Assembly (NCBI GenBank): GCA_951406725.2
Contig: OX597814.1
Location: 83,576,001 to 83,640,000, forward strand
Reading direction: 5' to 3'
Length of the DNA: 64,000 nt
From: Octopus vulgaris
Taxonomy: Eukaryota
Part shown: positions 1,870 through 42,870 of the stretch, one piece after another
Numbering within the stretch: position 1 is the stretch's first letter
How the letters are laid out: each line of letters opens with the position of its first letter
Translations under genes and position numbers: made by a program
The notes under the pieces: generated by a model
Databases searched by the model: none
The model's input: only the letters and a program-made list of their open reading frames with translations
What the model was told of the DNA's origin: nothing

Positions 1870-3190
1870 AATCTAAAATGTACACATATATTTATGACTG
1901 CTGATGATGGTATGTTCTCTGAAAATTAGTCATGGTTCTGCATATGAATTCATCTGCAGCAAGCTTTGCTTATGAAGAGTTATTACAACTCTGGACATCA
2001 GAGTCATCTTCTCTGGATTTTCAGCTATAAAATTCTAGCATTTCACTAATATGATGTGGTGTTTCTGCTGGATTTTCTAAACCTTATGTTCCAGAGAGTC
2101 ATAGATAAACCATCTTCTCTGTTCTCCATAATTTATCTCATCCAGATATTTTAACAATGGCAAGATTAATTTCAAATCATTTTGTTTGGCCTATTCTGCA
2201 AAAGTACATTCTCCTGCCAAAAAGCCAAGGTTAAGCACACTTTCCCTACTCCTGATGCTTATTTCAAGCATATCCATGTAGATATCATGGGTCCTCTTCA
2301 ATCAAGTCAAGATAAAATGTATCTTTTGATCTGCATACACCATTTTTTCCAGATGGTCTGAAGCCATACCAATTAAGGACATTTCATCCCTCTAATGGCC
2401 AAATAGATTTCATATTTTGGAGCACCTATGACAATAACAACCAACAGAGGTCATCAGTTTGAATCTAGTCTTTTTGACAACCTATCTAACTTGCTAGGTA
2501 AGCATTAAATTCATACTACAGCTTACCATCCTATGTCTAACAGAATGATAGAACGTTTTTATCGTCAGCTTAAAGCAGTTTTATGCAGCTTTACAAGTAC
2601 ATTCTGATTCAGATAGATGATTAGAAGACCTGCTGGTTGTGTTACTAGATTTATGTGTACCACTGTTAAGAAAAACCCAGGTTACTCCTTAGCAGAATTA
2701 CTGTATGGTTTGGCACTTACACTGCCTGTTCAAATGATATTGTCTATAGTTACTCAACATGATTCTACCAATTATATTCATCAGCTGTGAAATTACAGTC
2801 TCCTTAATAATAGGACTGCAGTTGATTAAAACTTTTGTTCTACCAATGTCAATACCTGGACTCATGTAATTGTATGCAATGATGTAGTTAAGTATCCCTT
2901 GCAGAGAGTTAATTCTAGATTGTACCATGCATTAAAAGCTACACCAAAGTAAATGGTTTTGGACATTCAAGGAAGACAAGAGACTGTCAAAGTTGATTGA
3001 TTTCAGCAGCCTTTTGTCATGTCTATTCCCCTCCCACAAAACTCCTCCTCCTCTTTGTCACACCTACACAATCTACACATAAACATAATGCTTTATCTAT
3101 CAACAGTACATTTCATACTGACAGAGTAAGCAAGAGTGGAAGAAAAGTACATTGGCCAGCCAGATACATTTGCACTTATTTTTATTAACA
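1870..3190 (+). mobile_element. Degenerate Ty3/Gypsy integrase region
   Basis: Fragments HVDIMGPL, RWSEAIPIKDI, FGAP.TITTNRG.QFES, HTTAYHP.SN.MIERF.RQLK across frameshifts. Confidence 0.8.
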
Positions 3191-3438
3191 CCAAAACACA
3201 CACAAAAATTCTTTTTAAAGTTACCTGAAAAAAAAAAAGAACTGCAGAACTTTGCATTTTCTATGAACTTTTCATTGTGGCATGAACATATCTTTCAAGA
3301 ATTTTTCAGTATTCAGTGCATGTCGTTTTTTTTTTCTTTTAGCACTTGCATTGGTCTCTCTCTCTCTCTCTCTCTTTATGTAAATTCTCTTTTTATTGTT
3401 TAGTTCTTACATTTTATGCAAAGAACTGTAAAAGGACT

Positions 3439-4042
3439 TGTAGTGAACTCTAGTGAGCTTCCCCACTTATATTAAGTACATACAAACATAGCAGGTAACA
3501 GCTAGCCTTTGGGTGCTGTTTTGGACCCCGTTGTGTTTACCACTCTGATTGGTTGACATTGGCGCAATTTGTTTCATACTTTATTGTGCACCAATATGCA
3601 ACCCAACCAATCACAACCTGCAAATAAGTCATGTGAGACAGTCTGTTCCAAACAAGCATTTGAGCCTACCCATCAGCTATAAAAACTCGCCTCTTCCTAG
3701 ACCCAACGTCAATTGGTCCCAGACTTTCTAAGGCCTAACCACTGACCACCTTGCAGTGACCTCCATCTTCATTGCCACACCAGATGTCTCTCACCAACGT
3801 CGTCAACATCTACACAGCACCAACACATTGCTCTGATTCCTACATCGCTGTTCATGAGCTTCTCACCAGGGTTAACAGCTTACATACAACCCATGCAGAT
3901 GTCTGTAAATACATATAAAAGTCCATCGACCATTCTATTCATCATTCCATTGTGTATATATGTGTGTGACCACAATAAACATGCTAAAGTTACCACCTTG
4001 TGTTTTATACATTCTTTACCAGGTTCCTACCACCACAAGAAC
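3439..4042 (+). repeat. Possible 3' LTR of the Gypsy remnant
   Basis: TG...CA-bounded segment downstream of the integrase, with TATAAAA and AATAAA; no partner LTR seen in the window. Confidence 0.3.
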
Positions 4043-4689
4043 ATAACTACCTTCTGAGAGTTTCATTAGATGACACCACAACATATAACATCTAAAGACT
4101 ATTTGTAGAGTGATTCAAAATCTAACTGCTTGGTAACCAGTCATGCATCATGATCAAACCATAGTAGTTTCATATCATTGGTCTATTAAGCAATACTGCC
4201 ATAAACTCCTAGCAGTATGCCTCTCCTAGTAATAACTGTTGCTGTTATTATTTGTTTGTAAAAGACCAATGTCAGTTACTTCACACAGTTTTATTCATCA
4301 ACCCAATCGGTCATCACCTCAGACCAACCAACAAAAGCCTGCTAGTGCTATGACTTTGCAAGATGAGTACCAAGAAAGCATACCAAAGAAAATAAGCATA
4401 ATAGTATGGAGATCTGTTAACATTTACTTGATTGCTACAATGATGAAAGCAAAGCTTTTTTTGAGAGAACAGTCACAAGAGATAAGACCTGAAGCAATCA
4501 CTTTGAGCCAGAATCCAAAAGGCAGAGTATGGCATGGAAAGATCTGGAATCACCAGCCAAAAAGAAATTCAAGATTCACAGAATAACTGAAGCTAACCAG
4601 TTTTGGGACACAAAAGGGACTATATTGGAACATTACCTGGAAGAGGTGTCTACAGCCTCCAGTGTAGGCTAGAGTGAAATGCTGGCCAA

Positions 4690-5115
4690 CAAACTGAAAC
4701 TGGTAATTCACATAACACCAAAGTCATTAGTCAAATCAAGTGTTAATATTGCATGACAATACACACCCGCATATGGCCATCCACATCGTTGAAACCACTG
4801 AAAAATTGAGTTTTGAGTTGCTGTAACATCCTGCACACAGTCCACATCTAGCCTCCTCCAACTATCATATCTTTGGACCACTCAAACATTCTTTACTAAG
4901 TCATTGATTTGTTACAGACAAAGAAGCACAAGAAGCAGTGCATAAATGGCTACATGACCAGCCAAAATCTTCTCCAATGGAATAAGCAAGCTTGTTGACC
5001 ACAGAAAGAAGTGCATTGAAAAACAAGGAGATTATGTTGAAAAATGATGTAATTGTTCAAACCCTGCTTTTGTTAATAAACTAAACAAGTGTGCATATAA
5101 TTTCTGTCTTACCCT

Positions 5116-5118
<3 letters not shown>
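4690..5118 (+). mobile_element. Mariner 3' remnant
   Basis: HDN..PH, PAHSP.LA.S.YHIFGPLK and KCIEKQGDYVEK* motifs. Confidence 0.8.
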
Positions 5119-5157
<39 letters not shown>

Positions 5158-5833
5158 TATATATCGGAATGGTCAAATTGCCAGTTTAGACAATAAAAAC
5201 ACACGCACTATATATTTGGTGTTATTTTGCTTCAGTGATATTTATTTTTTACATTAATCTTAATCTTATTTCGGCCAAAGTTCTTTCGTCACACTCCTGT
5301 GACCGCATCAGTGGTCCTTTGTTTTCTTCTCACTTACTTGTGTCTCTCCTTACTAACCGTCAGCCATTTTGTATTTCTATTGTATGTCTTCATTTGCGCA
5401 TGCTTATATCTCTATGTGCGTCTATGTTTATTTAGTGTGTGTGGGGGGGGGATGTCTGTAATATTTGTATCTTCTGGTTATATACATTCTTGTAATTTGT
5501 ATTTTGTTTTTGTTGTTGTTGCTTTTGTTCTAATTTTGTTCATGTGTTTACATCCACCCATTATTATCATTACATATGCTTGTATGTATGTATAACAACA
5601 ATATTAGTAATAATAATAATAAATCTAATCGAGAAAAAAAAAAAAAAAAAGAATATACATATACATATATATATATATACATACATATACATATACATAT
5701 ATATATATACATATATACACACACATATACACATATACATATACACATATATACACATATACATACACATAGATATTCATTTCTATTTCTTTAATTACCT
5801 GTGTATTTATTATGTTTGCAGGATCCACTATTG

Positions 5834-7582
5834 TCATATGTTGTGGTGTGCGCTATTGCTCCATTCTAGTTTTCTATTCAGGCTAGGTTTATTTTCTATT
5901 ATATGTGTAGCTTCTGTAATTTGTCTAATTGTTGCATCTGTTCTATGTGTGGACAATATCTTAATCTCTATGTTATTGATTGATCCCCCGTGTTCTTGTT
6001 CGGCGTGTTGGTACAGAATCGATGAGCTTTTACCTTCCTTGAGTTGTCTCCAATGTTCATTCACCCGCTCACCAATGCTTCTTGCAGTTTCCCCTACGTA
6101 TGTTACTGTCTTGTTACTGCATCTTCCCTCTATACATCTTATACTATAGACCACATTTCTGGCTTTACAGTTCGTTTGTGGGCTAAATCTACATACAGTG
6201 CAATAGTTATCCGTACAGAGAGTTCTACTAAAAGGATAGGTTCTACCAATTATAGATCTGATAGGGTTGCCTGGCTTTTCAACAACCTTAATTCTTAGTT
6301 TAAGTTTATCTAGGGTCCTTCTAAAGCGGTACGCTAGTTCACCTCCAGGGGTGGTGTCAACGAACATGACACTCTGGTGATTTATGGCTATCATACCAAG
6401 AGTTGGCCTTCCTTATTTTCTTTTTGTCCTTTCTATAGTGTTCCATGACTTGTTCCTATAGAGTGGGCAAATCCCATTCCTATCATTACATAATATATTA
6501 TCAAATTTCTTCATGGCTCCTTTGTATACTCTGATCCTTTCTTTATGGCTGTAACCTGAGAACTGCATGCGGTGAATGAAATACTGTATGTGTCTCTTTA
6601 ATTCTGTAGGCTCGCACATGCGTGACACATTTCTCATTATTCTGACGAGGTCTGCCATCAAAATATTGAATTTGGCATTGCCCGCAATGGCTGAGTTCCG
6701 GTGGATCAGGTATTTTGAGGCCATAGGTTTTGCATAGTATGAATGAAGGATTTGGGTTTTATTTTTCACAATTTCTAGCCAGAGTTCAGTGTCTAGTACT
6801 GGTAGTCTATGGTTGGGGTGTTTAGTGGGGTAGTCTATTGTGACCTTAATACTCTGGTGGATGGAGTTAGCTATTTGCTGGATGCTCTCCATAGTATTAG
6901 TTTCTATTACTATATCAACCGTACTCTCTTGTGGGGGTGCCTTTACTACTATATTGATATCATCAACATAGCGAGAGTACATGTTTACGAGTATGGATTT
7001 CTGCAGTAGGCATTCTTTAAGCCTTCTGTCCCACCATACCATGAAGAGGTTGGCCACATCACCAGCGATACTAACACCGATGGCTGCCCCCTCGTCCTGG
7101 GCATATATTTTATTATTAAATTTAAATGTGTGGCCTTTTAGGGTAACTCTTATACTAGCTCCTAGTGCATGTGCGATCATTTTCTTTACCTGATGGACAT
7201 TTGCGGGGCTCCGTATGGCTCTGGTCCATCCGCGCCATCTTTCTATATGTGTCTTCCTAGCCATAGAAGTAATTGTAGGCGGTCTACCTCTTAAACATCT
7301 ACTGGGGCAGAAACTACTAAGATTATGTTTATCTAAGTATTCACTATTATATGTCAGTCTAAGTAGGAGGCCCAGTTCTTCTGTGTCGACATTACAGAAC
7401 TCCACCTGGCTCTCGTTGATCATCTCCACGCACTTCTCCACTGCAAAATCTACGTCAATCGATGGGTATAGGGATACCACATCCATGCTACCTACTATAC
7501 ATCCTGTCAAGTCACAAGTTTTGTTACAGTCACTGATCCTGCTTAGGAGATCTTCTGTGCTGTCACATACATCAGGTGACAT
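5834..7582 (-). pseudogene. Mirror copy of the Penelope-like RT-GIY-YIG ORF, broken by a -1/+1 indel pair near 6379-6425
   Basis: Same protein as the plus-strand ORF, plus extra N-terminal residues from the spacer. One A is missing in a homopolymer and one extra C follows; could be mutation or consensus error. Confidence 0.85.
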
Positions 7583-7621
7583 CCTGATTATAGGATCAGT
7601 GACTGTAACAAAACTTGTGAC

Positions 7622-9298
7622 TTGACAGGATGTATAGTAGGTAGCATGGATGTGGTATCCCTATACCCATCGATTGACGTAGATTTTGCAGTGGAGAAGT
7701 GCGTGGAGATGATCAACGAGAGCCAGGTGGAGTTCTGTAATGTCGACACAGAAGAACTGGGCCTCCTACTTAGACTGACATATAATAGTGAATACTTAGA
7801 TAAACATAATCTTAGTAGTTTCTGCCCCAGTAGATGTTTAAGAGGTAGACCGCCTACAATTACTTCTATGGCTAGGAAGACACATATAGAAAGATGGCGC
7901 GGATGGACCAGAGCCATACGGAGCCCCGCAAATGTCCATCAGGTAAAGAAAATGATCGCACATGCACTAGGAGCTAGTATAAGAGTTACCCTAAAAGGCC
8001 ACACATTTAAATTTAATAATAAAATATATGCCCAGGACGAGGGGGCAGCCATCGGTGTTAGTATCGCTGGTGATGTGGCCAACCTCTTCATGGTATGGTG
8101 GGACAGAAGGCTTAAAGAATGCCTACTGCAGAAATCCATACTCGTAAACATGTACTCTCGCTATGTTGATGATATCAATATAGTAGTAAAGGCACCCCCA
8201 CAAGAGAGTACGGTTGATATAGTAATAGAAACTAATACTATGGAGAGCATCCAGCAAATAGCTAACTCCATCCACCAGAGTATTAAGGTCACAATAGACT
8301 ACCCCACTAAACACCCCAACCATAGACTACCAGTACTAGACACTGAACTCTGGCTAGAAATTGTGAAAAATAAAACCCAAATCCTTCATTCATACTATGC
8401 AAAACCTATGGCCTCAAAATACCTGATCCACCGGAACTCAGCCATTGCGGGCAATGCCAAATTCAATATTTTGATGGCAGACCTCGTCAGAATAATGAGA
8501 AATGTGTCACGCATGTGCGAGCCTACAGAATTAAAGAGACACATACAGTATTTCATTCACCGCATGCAGTTCTCAGGTTACAGCCATAAAGAAAGGATCA
8601 GAGTATACAAAGGAGCCATGAAGAAATTTGATAATATATTATGTAATGATAGGAATGGGATTTGCCCACTCTATAGGAACAAGTCATGGAACACTATAGA
8701 AAGGACAAAAAAGAAAATAAGGAAGGCCAACTCTTGGTATGATAGCCATAAATACCAGAGTGTCATGTTCGTTGACACCACCCCTGGAGGTGAACTAGCG
8801 TACCGCTTTAGAAGGACCCTAGATAAACTTAAACTAAGAATTAAGGTTGTTGAAAAGCCAGGCAACCCTATCAGATCTATAATTGGTAGAACCTATCCTT
8901 TTAGTAGAACTCTCTGTACGGATAACTATTGCACTGTATGTAGATTTAGCCCACAAACGAACTGTAAAGCCAGAAATGTGGTCTATAGTATAAGATGTAT
9001 AGAGGGAAGATGCAGTAACAAGACAGTAACATACGTAGGGGAAACTGCAAGAAGCATTGGTGAGCGGGTGAATGAACATTGGAGACAACTCAAGGAAGGT
9101 AAAAGCTCATCGATTCTGTACCAACACGCCGAACAAGAACACGGGGGATCAATCAATAACATAGAGATTAAGATATTGTCCACACATAGAACAGATGCAA
9201 CAATTAGACAAATTACAGAAGCTACACATATAATAGAAAATAAACCTAGCCTGAATAGAAAACTAGAATGGAGCAATAGCGCACACCACAACATATGA
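7622..9298 (+). CDS. Penelope-like RT + Cys-rich linker + C-terminal GIY-YIG endonuclease, 5'-truncated (558 aa uninterrupted)
   Basis: RT motifs [16 protein letters not shown]...ANLFM, RYVDD, LPVLD; CxxxxCxxC linker; GIY-YIG-type NVVYSIRC...[16 protein letters not shown]...E...N. Begins at TTG just before motif A, so there is no native start and the N-terminal RT motifs are missing. Confidence 0.92.
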
Positions 9299-9817
9299 CA
9301 ATAGTGGATCCTGCAAACATAATAAATACACAGGTAATTAAAGAAATAGAAATGAATATCTATGTGTATGTATATGTGTATATATGTGTATATGTATATG
9401 TGTATATGTGTGTGTATATATGTATATATATATATGTATATGTATATGTATGTATATATATATATATGTATATGTATATTCTTTTTTTTTTTTTTTTTTT
9501 TTCTCGATTAGATTTATTATTATTATTACTAATATTGTTGTTATACATACATACAAGCATATGTAATGATAATAATGGGTGGATGTAAACACATGAACAA
9601 AATTAGAACAAAAGCAACAACAACAAAAACAAAATACAAATTACAAGAATGTATATAACCAGAAGATACAAATATTACAGACATCCCCCCCCACACACAC
9701 TAAATAAACATAGACGCACATAGAGATATAAGCATGCGCAAATGAAGACATACAATAGAAATACAAAATGGCTGACGGTTAGTAAGGAGAGACACAAGTA
9801 AGTGAGAAGAAAACAAA

Positions 9818-9862
9818 GGACCACTGATGCGGTCACAGGAGTGTGACGAAAGAACTTTGGCC
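9818..9862 (+). ncRNA. Minimal hammerhead-like fold in the Penelope-like 3' region (mirror copy at ~5273-5317)
   Basis: GGACCA-CTGATGCG-GTCACA(ggag)TGTGAC-GAAA-GAACTT-TGGCC; the core deviates from CUGANGA. Penelope-like terminal repeats are known to carry minimal hammerheads. Confidence 0.45.
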
Positions 9863-10037
9863 GAAATAAGATTAAGATTAATGTAAAAAATAAATATCAC
9901 TGAAGCAAAATAACACCAAATATATAGTGCGTGTGTTTTTATTGGCTAAACTGGCAATATGACCATTCCGAAATATAACAATATCTGTTTCAACACACGA
10001 CTTCACATAAAAAATCTTGCACAACAAATATTTAAAC

Positions 10038-10096
<59 letters not shown>

Positions 10097-10225
10097 AACA
10101 TGTAATGTTACCTATTGTATCAGTGAGAATTTTTCTGATAATTCTCAAAACTGAGAATTTTTCACAAATTACTGTTGTTGTTGCAGCTGGCTGTTATCTT
10201 TTGTTACAGTTTGATTTTTAAATAA

Positions 10226-10296
<71 letters not shown>

Positions 10297-10914
10297 GTCA
10301 TAGACTCCATTCTACAAACCTGAGATGAGACATCAGTTGCATAATGTTAATTTAATGCTATCAATATCTAGCAAAGAAAAATATGTTGGAAATCCTAGTT
10401 TGTAATATGATAAAAATCAACTTAGAAGTAATAAGTTTACCTTCTGCTTTGTGGATGTTGAATGTCATCTAGATATTCAAATGTCAAGGAAATTTATATT
10501 CAATACATTTTTTTTTTTTAATTTCCTACCTCAATGTTAAGGTGCCTTGCAGATGATCATATATCTGAATGTGCTAATAGATTGAGAAATGCTTCTTCAC
10601 ATGGATAGAATGTTTTATATGAGAGTATGATTTATTGCTCTCTATTTCAAATTAATGAAACATTTCTCAGTTACATGCTGACCACTTTTAGCTAATTTCT
10701 GTGAACTGTTCTACCCTAACTAGTAAAGAGGATTGAACTAGTAAAAGTTAAATGTATTGACTATGAACAAAGTAGAATGTCAGTGACAAGGGTGTCAGCC
10801 TTTAAATTTTTAATTGGTCAGCTGATACTCTATTGAGTTGATAAGTTGAATAATTGATGCTTGAACATTACATTTGTTACTGAGCTTTGTTGTAATATAG
10901 ATATCTAGCCATAG

Positions 10915-11725
10915 AAAATTGTAATAATTAGAGATAGGTAGTCAAAGAGACACATAAATGTTATCATATCACAACAACATTTTGAGAATCAATGTAGGGT
11001 AATGTATTCAGATGACAAAGAAATATCTATCTATCTATCTCCATCTATCTTTCTATCTAGCTGTCTATCTGTCCATCCATTTATCCGTCTGTCTATTTAT
11101 CTATCTGTCTGTCTGTCTATCTACATGCATACATACATATATTAATGTATGTATTCTGTTCATAGCACTTCTCAAGTTGGCATTTACAAACACCATACCA
11201 AAAAGCTAAACTGCTTCCACACGAACTGCAAGAGAAAGCTGTTGAAATCACCTGGTAAGACAAGGTCCCAGACATGGAGCACTTACACACAACAGAGGAG
11301 AGCGCAAGAAGGTGGGCAGGCCACTTTGTTTGAGTGTCTGACAAATAACTCCCCAAGTGACTGTTTTACAGTCTAGCCTTCTGCTAGACTGTAAAACAGC
11401 AAAAGGCAAGTGCATGCCAAGTGGACTGAAAGAGCACTTCAAGGATATACTCAAAGCCTCACTGAAGAGCTTTCAAATCAACCGCAACACCTGGGAAACA
11501 CAAGCATAACAGAGGTGACACTTCCTACAAACAGAACAGAATTGCAGGGGCACAAAGAAAACATGAGCTGCACAAGTTCAGAGCTAACTCTTTGTCTTCA
11601 GTCTCAGAAGACAACCAGTGCTTGACCTGCAGCAGAGGCTTCCGAGCACACCCTCAAACTGATTTGTGCTTCTTCTTGAATGTGATGTCCTTGGTCATTG
11701 TCATTGACAAACTAATGTACATATA

Positions 11726-19141: not shown

Positions 19142-19187
<46 letters not shown>

Positions 19188-19190
<3 letters not shown>

Positions 19191-19622
19191 AGGAAAAAAA
19201 TTTTTTTAAATGCAGAATGCTCAAATGAAAGAAAATTTTAATAAAATGAGAAAATGATAAAATATATAAATATATATTTATTCAACCGGTTTTCGTCATT
19301 GTATGACTTGTCAAGAATATTTATGTTTTAAGAAGTTTTTTTAAAAAAGGGGAAAAAAAGAAAATTGCATTGTTTTTTGTAAAAGAATAATGCAATTTTC
19401 TTTTTTTCCCCTTTCTAATTTTTAAAAAAACTTCTTAAAACATAAATATTCTTGACAAGTCATACAATGACGAAAACCGGTTGAATAAATATATATTTAT
19501 ATATTTTATCATTTTCTCATTTTATTAAAATTTTCTTTCATTTGAGCATTCTGCATTTTAAAAAATTTTTCCTTACTTATCATTTCTCCACGTGCGGTCA
19601 ACACAACCCCACCATTTATTGA

Positions 19623-27280: not shown

Positions 27281-29119
27281 AGACACTGATGATTTATAAT
27301 TTCAGGAGTCATATAAAAATCACAAAATCCAGGGTGACCAATTTGTAAGAAATAAACATTTATTTTTGGTGAATACCATTAAAATAAAGCTTCCTTTCAG
27401 ATTGAAAGTTAACAAATTTCATCAAAATGTCTGCCATATCATTTTTCATTTTTGGAAACAAAAAGTATCCTTGATAACTTCATTGTCATTAAAACAGAAA
27501 TGAAGTATTAATGTCACAAATAAATGCCAGAGTAATATTTTTTGTTTCTCAGTTTGAACAGACAAAATTACTATTGTATGTGAGTGTGTATGGGTGTACA
27601 TATGTGTGTCTGTATGTGTTTCTGTGTGTTTGTGTGCATTTTGTGCAGTCATGTTTGCCTGTGTATGAGTATAGACAGAGAATCAAATCTCCAGACAATA
27701 TCATAAATAGAAAATAGATTCAATTTCTTCACTGCATAATTTCTGAATTAGAATGTTAGTAACAGTGGGGAAATCAAGAGTTTCCAAAAATAAAAATGAA
27801 TGGAATCTGCACCACAATTCAAAATAAAACTTCCTCATTGCTGAAATATTCAATATTGTCAATTTGAATAAAAACAAAAATTACAGACATTAGATTATGC
27901 TCAGATTCTCAGTTAGTATGGTTTATTTTTAATATCTTTACATCTCTACTTTCTAAGTTAAATTGGTGAGGAAGTTTTAGTAATTTTTATGTTTGCATGA
28001 ATTATTTACCAAATAATTTTGAAACAGATATTCTTCTGTGTTTAAATATTCCACTGCGTTTTTATTAGAGATCTAATTATATATTTACAACAGACATGGT
28101 ACAATAAACTGCACTCAGTCTAAGCTGTTAGCTGGTTTGTGCTGGAAAGGGAAACTAGCTGTAAAAATTGCACCAGAAATAACAATATTCACAAGAAAGT
28201 TAGCTGGGTTTTTTTCTCTGTTGTTGTGTTATGAGATGACAAAGGTTTGCAGTAGATGGTATGATAAAGGAATGTAACAGGTGGCAAGAGGAACGATCAC
28301 AACAAATGGGAAAGCAACGGACCACAGGTGGCAAAATGTTGTGAGACAGCCAAACCATGTCAGCATGGAAAACAAACATAAAATGAGGATGATGATGATG
28401 ATGTTTAACCAATCAACTAAAACTTAACACATCAAATGCTGACAATTTACATCGCTTTTCTATCAAATGCATCCATCTCTATTAATTTCAGAATAATTTT
28501 GAGTCTGGTATTACATTTCAACTAAATGCTGGATAATTATGTATTCCTCTACAGAGCTATCTATAGTAAAGTGTCTTTGCTAATGACAGGGATGTCACAG
28601 TAGAAGCATTCTTATCACAACTCCTATTCTGCAAATCCTACTTATACAACTTTAAATTTTTTCAAAATGATCCCAGATTGTCGTAACCTTTATTGCTTAG
28701 GTAATTTGAGATGTAACTGAAAAATTTCATATAAACACAAAATAATAAACTAGTAACACAGGTGCATTCTTGATATATAAACCATTGGTTTGATCTGTAA
28801 GCCAGTTTTTAAATATGGCTGTCTATGTCTCTCAGTGAATCCTTCTGTTAATCTTCCTCTTTCTCCTCCTCCTCCAACCCCCATCATCATCATCATCATC
28901 ACCACAACCACCACCACCCTCAAACCCCACCATCTTCAACTTTGTTCATCCAGCAAATTTTTAAGATACAAGGTACATTCACAAAGTATCTATCTTTATT
29001 TTTTTTCCAGCCAAAACTAATGCTACATGGGTGAAATCCTTTTTTTACACAATGTATGTGTAAAATTTTTCATGATGGTAGGCTCAGTCAACTCCTGGTT
29101 TATGACTAGGATACAGACA

Positions 29120-29850
29120 TGTAGTGCATGCTCATCAGATTTTCGTTTTCACCAAACACATCAAGCAGATATATTTCATCAAGTTTTGCCAAAATCCTAG
29201 TCAAACTCAAGCTCATACTATCCAGAAGATTCAGCAGGCTTTTGGTAATGATATCATAGGCAAAACATGGATCAAGGAGTGGTACAACTGCTTCAAACAT
29301 GGCCCAGCCCAGTGGAGAGTGAGGCATACTTGGGTAGACCATCCACAAGACAAAACATGGAGCCAATTGAGAATAGTCATGGAAGACTGTCCTATAACAA
29401 TCCAGGAAATTACCCACGAAGTGGAAATGAGCACAGAATCAATGCATTCCATTTTAATGGAGGATTTGTGCATGCAGAGAGTGTCAGCAAAATTCATTCC
29501 TTAGGTGCTGGCAGAGTGGCAGCAGCATCTCTGCATGGAAATCACTCAGGACATGCTAGACTGTGCAAACCATGATCCAGACTTCATGAAGACTGTCATC
29601 ACTGGTTAAGAAACATGGGTTTATGGTCTCTGCTCAATGTTTTTGGTCATCTTGTGTGAAAACGAAAATCTGACAAGCGTGCACTACACATCTGTACTCT
29701 AGGCTTAACAGCCAAGAACTGACATGGCCAACAAGCACAAAATTTTCTTGCATACACAGGAAGAGTGGCATCACCTCCCACTCAAAGGTTTTTTCCCACA
29801 TGGCATCAGTTTTGGTAGGAAAAAATAGTCAGATACTTTTTGAACATACT
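29120..29850 (+). mobile_element. Mariner remnant
   Basis: IKFCQ...TIQKIQQAFG...IKEWYNCFK, ITIQEI..EV, RVSAKFIP, ITG.ETWVYG motifs. Confidence 0.8.
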
Positions 29851-41554: not shown

Positions 41555-42197
41555 TACATATATATATGTATATATATATACATGTATATATATATACATG
41601 TATATATATATACATGTATATATATGTGTGTGTACCTTTGTGTCTGTGTTTTTCCTCCACCAATGATTGACAACTAATGTTGTTGTGTTTATGTCCCTGA
41701 AACTTAGCAGTGTGGCAAAAGAGACCGATAGAACAAGTACTAAGCTTACAGAGAATAAGTCCTGGAGTCGATTTCTCGACTAAAGGTGGTGCTCCAGCAT
41801 GGGCGCAGTCAAATGACTGAAACAAGTTAAAGGGTATATATATATATATATATAATTTGTACATTATTATAAATAATATATATATATATATATTATATAT
41901 TATTATAAATAATATATATATATATATATCTATAATTTATATATTATAAATAATCAACCCATGCTAGCATGGAAAACGGACGCTAAATGATGATGATGAT
42001 GATGATGTATGATGATATTATTATTATTATGAATAATATATATTTTCTATTTTCTCTCCCTGTTTATTTCTGTGTTCCTTTCTGTCAAAGAATGTAGGCT
42101 CAAAACGTAAAAGACCTTCTTACTTCCCGAGTGTTAAACTAATACATCTGTTTGTTGTTTACACACTCGTCTTTGTCTTTTGTTTTTTTATAAATTC

Positions 42198-42246
<49 letters not shown>

Positions 42247-42250
<4 letters not shown>

Positions 42251-42870
42251 AGAGTTTATGAAAAAAACAAAAGACGAAGATAGGTGGTGTACAAAACAAA
42301 CAGATGTATTAGTATAACGCTCAGGAATAGAAAAAGTCTTTTACGTTTCGAGCCTATGCTTTCTACAGAAAGGGACACAGAAAAAACAAGGAGAGAAACA
42401 AGGAGAGAAAAAAAATTTGTGTAGTAGCTAACGAACTATCATGGCGACTAGTGGCAGACAGAAGGGTCACACACGAGAAGGAAAGTAGGGGAGATAACAA
42501 AGTAAAGATGACCCCCAACACGAAGGTGCATGTGTGTATAAGAGAGTATGTATGTGCATGTGAAAGAGGGCTGGTGGTCTGGACGTGTGCATGTATGTAT
42601 GTGTAGGTGTGAAAATGTGGGGACAGGTGTGTGGGTGGTGTGTTGTGATGTGATGTGTAATGTTGTATGGTGTAGTGTGGTGTGATATTGTTGAGAGGTG
42701 GCGGAGGTGAGAGTGGGGAAAGCATGGTGTGGGTTTGGCTGAGGGTTGGAGTAGAGTTGGGGTTTGTGGATAGGCAGAGGATGGGGGTAGAGGTGGGGTA
42801 TGTGGGGGAATTGGATTAGAGATTATGTTAACCTCATGAAGGGATGGCTTCACCTAAGGAAATACTGTTT
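42247..42870 (-). mobile_element. (TA)n-abutting repeat family, longest copy; probably the 3' end of another Penelope-like family
   Basis: Homologous plus-strand copies at ~19660-19878, ~42045-42201 and ~62720-62885, all ending at (TA)n; shared hammerhead-like fold ending GAAACGTA. Confidence 0.65.

Follow-up and report, generated by a model that had tools for sequence, protein, structure and literature searches.

Penelope-like elements (PLEs) are retroelements for which an inverted arrangement of truncated copies has been described (PMC8557442, PMC3846280, PMC2377424). In the complex insertions of endonuclease-bearing (EN+) PLEs reported by Craig et al. 2021 (PMC8557442), 5' truncation, partial tandems and an inverted 5'-truncated copy at the 5' end occur together with a tail of 30-40 nucleotides (nt) at one end only, and targeting of (TA)n is linked to a Cys linker. 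The origin of the inverted arms and of the one-sided tails is an open question in that paper and is left to unvalidated steps by Frangieh et al. 2024 (PMC11167929); papers are cited here by accession, and statements about them refer to the parts covered. We have analysed a palindrome of this type in a stretch of 64,000 nt from the genome of Octopus vulgaris (assembly GCA_951406725.2, contig OX597814.1, positions 83,576,001 to 83,640,000 of the forward strand), which is called the window in the following. It consists of two 5'-truncated copies of a young Penelope-like retroelement, which lie head to head in a (TA)n array. With a probability of roughly 0.53 both halves were made in one insertion event, in which two nicked strands primed on the same RNA molecule.

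The octopus family resembles the EN+ PLEs of Craig et al. in all of these features apart from the length of its tail, which is 56 nt. The Penelope families of Adineta vaga (Arkhipova et al. 2013, PMC3846280) likewise show head-to-head inversions with junction palindromes and an optional tail, an open reading frame (ORF) that starts inside the pseudo-long terminal repeat (pseudo-LTR), and asparagine-rich inserts that bring the ORFs to near 1,300 amino acids (aa). In contrast, the octopus has its Asn-rich insert ahead of the fingers of the reverse transcriptase (RT), and its young copies number in the hundreds. The third system is PAc Poseidon, which was studied in vitro (PMC11167929). Its protein, a predicted dimer, cleaves and extends both strands of AT-rich targets, and two RT start sites within the first codons of the ORF bound the tail. 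It differs from the octopus element in clade and tail length; the parts of that paper covered here do not address inverted arms and report no strand difference in the start site.

Structure of the palindrome

Self-alignment of the window revealed mirrored arms at 5151-7540 and 7592-9984 with their 3' ends pointing outward. They align over 2,384 identical columns with four substitutions and four small indels. (TA)n was found at 5122-5164 and 10039-10096, and the sequences outside the two ends are unalike. An earlier note on this DNA had described two near-identical inverted arms of about 2.39 kb, both truncated near the same point before RT motif A, with an extra stretch of about 55 nt on the right arm and with a mirror confined to the element between (TA)n flanks, and our alignment agrees with that description in each of these points (Table 1).

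Coordinates within the element refer to one natural tandem unit of 4,587 nt. The arms cover nearly equal lengths of it (2,447 unit positions on the left and 2,449 on the right), their 5' ends lie 54 nt apart, and they account for about 53% of the unit and for 43% of the ORF. In the full protein the 5' cut points correspond to aa 724 and 742, shortly ahead of SMDVVSLYP, the motif-A segment. The junction, at which the arms overlap by three nucleotides, occurs at no other fetched locus. The 51 unpaired bases of the centre had been taken for a spacer. They are element sequence reached by the left arm only, that is the further 5' part of this arm, and public contigs carry the same stretch uninterrupted as normal element. 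The locus is very probably an ordinary insertion of its family.

All four substitutions between the arms fall within the 40 nt at the outer end of the left arm (5151-5190), adjoining the TA array; they are private substitutions and all lead towards T or A. This cluster is unexplained and may reflect an assembly error or error-prone initiation. A general mark of tail-less ends was considered and rejected, as among 34 such ends only those of the window and of locus L031 showed clustered substitutions.

Table 1. Features of the palindrome and its borders (positions in the window; unit positions refer to the 4,587-nt tandem unit)
Position	Strand	Feature	Remark
5122..5150		(TA)n target array, left of the insertion	
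5151..7594	-	Left arm, 5'-truncated, tail-less	Unit 2085-4531 (7594 to 5151); frame broken
7541..7591	-	Supposed spacer	Element sequence of the left arm only
7592..7594		Head-to-head junction	3-nt microhomology
7592..10040	+	Right arm, 5'-truncated, with tail	Unit 2139-4587
7592..9298	+	Open frame for residues 742-1309 of the 1,309-aa full protein	RT palm and thumb (YVDD at 8162), Cys linker, GIY-YIG-type endonuclease
8915..8941	+	Linker motif C-x4-C-x2-C preceding the endonuclease	Feature of the Neptune/Nematis type; definition follows PMC8557442
9727..9772	+	TATA-like box (9727), followed about 30 nt downstream by a pile-up of 5' ends of sister copies	Putative transcription start in the pseudo-LTR
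9818..9862	+	Hammerhead-like fold with non-canonical core	Read by eye; mirror copy near 5273-5317
9959..9961	+	ATG that opens the 1,309-aa ORF in tandem copies	
9985..10040	+	Tail of 56 nt	Bounded by unit 4531 and 4587, the fixed 3' end points of the family
10039..10096		(TA)n target array, right of the insertion	

Inverted arms in the family

A search of the octopus genome (2.8 Gb), in which 40 of 2,495 candidates were scored, listed 44 matches at about 100% identity. The 37 stretches fetched around these matches represent 36 insertions, as two stretches adjoin. This sample is biased towards long copies, and a second one was therefore anchored in the tail regardless of copy length. The exact tail pattern occurs at 738 sites in the genome, and the first 100 in genome order gave 97 fetched insertions after removal of the window and of two second hits of one insertion.

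An inverted truncated arm adjoins the element in 34 of the 36 long-copy insertions, and a resolved inversion junction is present in 79 of the 97 tail-anchored ones; 16 of the latter showed no junction that could be resolved, and an internal tandem junction is involved in two. The breakpoints derive from two parses that were curated by hand. The earlier note had asked for the genome-wide fraction of palindromic copies and had regarded an inversion covering the whole inserted coding region as special. The counts speak against the latter: the inverted layout is the majority state of the family and the already published norm for PLEs. Among the 79 junctions the duplex has a median length of 224 nt and reaches at least 1 kb in 14 cases; near-equal truncation, with arm ends within 60 nt, is found in 31. 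Compared with the EN+ PLEs of PMC8557442 the arms in the window are long, and arm length is the only property in which the window is uncommon, a duplex of at least 2,390 nt being present in two of the 79.

If the proportion of 79 in 97 holds throughout, inverted arms are expected at about 600 of the 738 exact-tail sites, roughly 100 of them with a duplex of at least 1 kb. With so many sister sites, possible effects on double-stranded RNA, editing and genome stability are therefore a question for the whole family and not for this site. The locus itself is an ordinary dead insertion, and more can be learnt from its family than from this one site.

Tails, alleles and arm ends

Three rules emerge from the sister insertions. 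The first concerns the tail. The family has two fixed 3' end points 56 nt apart, and each insertion uses one of each. Exactly one tail was seen in all 32 long-copy insertions with both outer ends visible. In the tail-anchored sample 73 inverted ends opposite a tail were located. Of these, 71 have no tail and the other two involve an internal tandem junction; in 24 of the 97 insertions no inverted end was located.

The second rule concerns the source. Opposite arms agree at 77 of 78 minor-allele columns, compared with 8.5% agreement between loci (128 loci after removal of duplicates), and 18 locus-private variants are common to both arms. The two arms of the window share one haplotype, which is present in 8 of 74 segments; 11 haplotypes were counted.

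According to the third rule the two arms of an insertion tend to end at the same point. Among the 79 junctions 11 are co-terminal within 3 nt, 17 within 10 nt and 25 within 30 nt, for which permutation predicts 1.2, 2.5 and 5.5, respectively. In the strictest subset, from which damaged, microsatellite and hot-spot junctions were removed, 16 of 50 are co-terminal (3.95 expected). The 54-nt offset in the window falls within this tendency. Our literature search, which covered only a minority of subscription papers and not the PLE reviews of 2005-2006, found no paper that quantifies co-termination of PLE arms; in the parts of PMC8557442 covered, co-termination and allele agreement are not quantified. 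Nothing bearing on the junction was found in the parts covered of bioRxiv 10.64898/2026.07.22.740005 and PMC9977147.

Either arm can reach farther 5' (32 versus 36 junctions), and in 36 of 79 it is the tail-less one. The 5' ends are not evenly spread: 19 of 158 fall into a single 20-nt bin about 30 nt past the TATA-like box, compared with one in each of the two upstream bins, and the six symmetric cases at this site have unrelated flanks. This pile-up is likely the RNA 5' end, that is the transcription start. In Drosophila the promoter of Penelope is likewise situated in the pseudo-LTR, but it has no TATA box (PMC2377424). No sharp peak of truncation was seen at the predicted hammerhead cut, with 10 of 158 ends in that 20-nt bin.

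Microhomology of at least 2 nt is present at 29 of 49 gap-free junctions (16% by chance), a count that leaves out 31 of the 80 parsed junctions with inserted or unresolved bases. Three loop-less centres (L070, L077 and L108) have just a 2-nt self-complementary overlap.

The same 5' breakpoints recur at unrelated loci, namely in the pairs L036/L038, L037/L060 and L067/L094 (unit 2060, 1938 and 2162), and further recurrent ones lie at a poly-T run near unit 4033-4061. These may be either RT pause sites or inherited RNA ends. The nearly equal lengths of the two arms in the window would fit two RTs moving 56 nt apart, but this idea was unsupported, as 4 of 79 junctions have offsets of -45 to -70 (1.6 expected, p 0.07).

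Proposed mechanism of insertion

The following course of events would account for the locus. The GIY-YIG nuclease of an intact sister copy would cut both strands in the TA array, whereupon the tail site and the tail-less site would each be used for priming by one of the two 3'-OH ends. Both complementary DNAs (cDNAs) would copy the same RNA and stop near the same point, here 54 nt apart, at the 5' end or a break of that RNA. The cDNA ends would be joined via the 3 nt of microhomology, and the host would fill in the second strands. Two primings on a single RNA are favoured by the one-tail rule, the common source alleles and the excess of co-termination. Further points for two primings are that either arm can be the longer one, that each arm of the window has unique sequence and that loop-less centres exist.

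In twin priming of LINE-1 the second nicked strand also primes on the same RNA, and the cDNAs are joined by microhomology. Twin priming inverts a non-overlapping upstream piece, whereas both octopus arms start at the 3' end and the sequence is therefore duplicated as a palindrome. The steps with one RNA and two primers agree with the in vitro data on a lizard PLE (PMC11167929). Tentatively, and with somewhat less assurance than for the locus, we suggest that PLEs copy one RNA twice, that the strands take the tail and the tail-less start site, respectively, and that both cDNAs extend as far as one common 5' end of the RNA, be it the transcription start or a break.

Several points weigh against two primings on one RNA. 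Copying back of a folded cDNA predicts common alleles, short loops and microhomology equally, and the 18 private variants in both arms fit either model. As many as 41 of the 79 junctions are asymmetric by more than 120 nt, and co-termination is therefore a tendency only. The two start sites are not strand-specific in vitro (PMC11167929). A second round of copying on one RNA presupposes its release from the first cDNA, a hypothetical step. Gene conversion or assembly polishing between the arms could inflate the allele agreement, and the hand curation of breakpoints and the 31 of 80 junctions outside the microhomology count also have to be borne in mind.

A serious alternative, although we consider it less likely, is the fold-back just mentioned, in which a single cDNA self-anneals at its 3' end and is copied back as DNA, one end being cut back afterwards by the nuclease at the tail-less site. 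It accounts for the allele agreement, the excess of short loops and the microhomology. Self-priming was proposed for junction palindromes in the Discussion of PMC3846280, and PMC8557442 ascribes the tail to nuclease resolution of an intermediate. However, without extra trimming it fails at the window and in those 36 of 79 junctions in which the tail-less arm lies farther 5' and the other arm is tailed. Priming within a single strand is hardly conceivable at the loop-less centres, whose overlap is 2 nt, and PMC11167929 maps the tail to two RT start sites.

Clearly less probable is priming of the two strands on two different RNAs, which would usually stem from the same source locus active in the cell. 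The one-tail rule, the freedom of either arm to be longer, the symmetric ends at the likely start and the many asymmetric junctions fit such a course, but it does not predict the co-termination found away from the start site (the 16 of 50 above). Moreover, with at least eight loci with intact ORFs and 11 haplotypes available, just one of 78 columns is discordant between the arms.

The palindrome is real in the assembly and probably also in the animal. That the mirror is an artefact of assembly or of a fold-back read appears very improbable. The clustered substitutions and the indels of the left arm could be consensus errors, and none of the contigs listed from four public runs bridges the centre (28 of 84 pieces, short contigs), a result that is uninformative either way. 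The same applies to 4300-11000, for which neither a bridge nor an empty allele was among the matches listed from four runs, because most matches lie outside those listed and TA arrays interrupt the contigs. In a fold-back read one would expect a mirrored arm, usually together with the sequence flanking it, yet here the flanks differ, the outer ends lie on the two fixed end points of the family and each arm has sequence absent from the other. The same layout also recurs at most sister loci with differing breakpoints.

Two independent opposite insertions into the same TA array are conceivable in a family that targets such arrays with hundreds of young copies, but they are largely excluded by the lack of TA between the arms, the 3-nt microhomology join, the shared minor haplotype and the one-tail rule. 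As regards a target-site duplication, both ends of the insertion lie in (TA)n, and no empty allele was among the matches listed.

The three rules (one tail, same source alleles and excess of co-terminal ends) narrow the models and make the insertion mechanism directly testable. If two primings on one RNA are correct, the family with its more than 700 near-identical insertions is a natural readout of this mechanism and of the transcription start of the element.

Classification and age of the element

Intact ORFs of 1,307-1,309 aa are present at at least eight loci. The genome contains 28 exact tandem junctions that give a pseudo-LTR arrangement with the ORF start in the upstream repeat; the window itself has no tandem. 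Database proteins with 99-100% identity to the element ORF are named Octopus vulgaris.

For aa 560-1309 of an intact sister copy a model was predicted with a predicted local distance difference test (pLDDT) value of 85.5. Telomerase RTs make up its six best matches in Foldseek (E 1e-8 to 6e-7, template modelling score 0.33-0.37). Pfam RVT_1 matches the element weakly (E 0.001), as do RTs in a sequence search of solved structures. The endonuclease lies at the C-terminus of the same ORF as the telomerase-like RT. Its pattern VY...YVGET..R..E..N is kept across homologs, and a Cys pair inside the GIY-YIG core is followed by His residues. The GIY-YIG assignment rests on these motifs, as the Pfam GIY-YIG match is weak and was obtained for one of 13 members (E 0.012). 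The DKG motif reads DKS and the RW motif is present.

The element is an endonuclease-bearing PLE with motifs of the Neptune/Nematis type; its linker at 8915-8941 conforms to the CX2-5CxxC pattern of the Neptune and Nematis clades. The descriptions of C-terminal EN+ PLEs of this type in PMC8557442 agree in the order of RT and GIY-YIG, the C-x4-C-x2-C linker and the Cys pair in the core with subsequent His. The DKS variant and the RW motif are shared with the description of Hydra, which in contrast lacks CCHH, has a CxCX5C linker and is shorter than 3 kb; the Hydra clade is ruled out by the Cys pair and His residues, the typical linker and the 4.6-kb unit. Naiad/Chlamys elements, with an N-terminal endonuclease, are ruled out by its C-terminal position, and the Penelope/Poseidon clade, which has no Cys linker, by the linker between RT and endonuclease.

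Copies deviate by 0.18% from the commonest letter per column, and the arms of one insertion differ by 0.14%. With a rate of 0.0036 per million years, quoted in PMC13282606, the copies are at most about 0.2 million years old. The element had been described earlier as a young, (TA)n-targeted PLE with RT and GIY-YIG, and the low divergence, the TA flanks and the motifs bear this out. In PMC13282606 31 recently active Penelope-like families are already listed for Octopus vulgaris.

Two further observations concern the ORF. The intact ORF at L062:1794-5723 (minus strand) contains, between the N-terminus and the RT fingers (aa ~250-505), an insert of about 255 aa that is rich in Asn and Ser and is absent from homologs; rotifer Penelopes have comparable inserts elsewhere in the protein. 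The first 149 aa of the annotated host protein P0026 match the element ORF at 97%; this protein is either a gene-model chimera or an exonised copy.

Coding capacity of the arms

From stop to stop the right-arm frame comprises 572 codons (7580-9298), of which 568 are element-derived; 550 are counted from the first Met. The uninterrupted frame reported before is present, but its stated length of 558 aa was not reproduced. The N-terminal region and the RT finger motifs are missing from it. In the left arm the frame is broken by the loss of one nucleotide near 6425 and the gain of one at 6379. Because the N-terminal region is missing from both arms, as are the conserved motifs that precede motif A, neither arm can make a working protein, and the copy in the window is dead.

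Rfam gave no hammerhead match in the pseudo-LTR at E<=1; its only matches were hairpin-type microRNAs below threshold. At position 9857 related copies in public contigs mostly have a C, with which the hammerhead-like fold would have a more usual cleavage triplet, and the young family mostly has a T.

Genomic surroundings

The nearest gene found within the window encodes the tubulin polyglutamylase TTLL9, whose complete coding exons lie on the minus strand from 61327 to 22726. The last coding exon ends 12.7 kb from the palindrome, and a location in an intron of TTLL9 is thereby ruled out. Matches of 35 other long frames in the window were restricted to one mariner and TTL. The analysis revealed no host transcript across the site; RNA runs were absent from the list obtained for the flank, which is no evidence either way. 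The earlier note had envisaged a hairpin RNA from read-through transcription. This proposal is conditional and finds no support here: such an RNA would fold, but there is no sign of one. The putative element promoters lie at the outer ends and face outward. An unpaired centre of 51 nt likely hinders cruciform extrusion.

A second palindrome of 400 bp was found at 19184-19580 beside a TA array. It has extra sequence on one side and no similarity to the element described here, and is probably another Penelope-type insertion. At 42051-42398 an inverted repeat of 85% is centred on a TA array. Decayed mariner-like pieces lie at 29106-29501, where Pfam HTH_48 matches, and at 4236-5050, which we take to be mariner-like from its motif.

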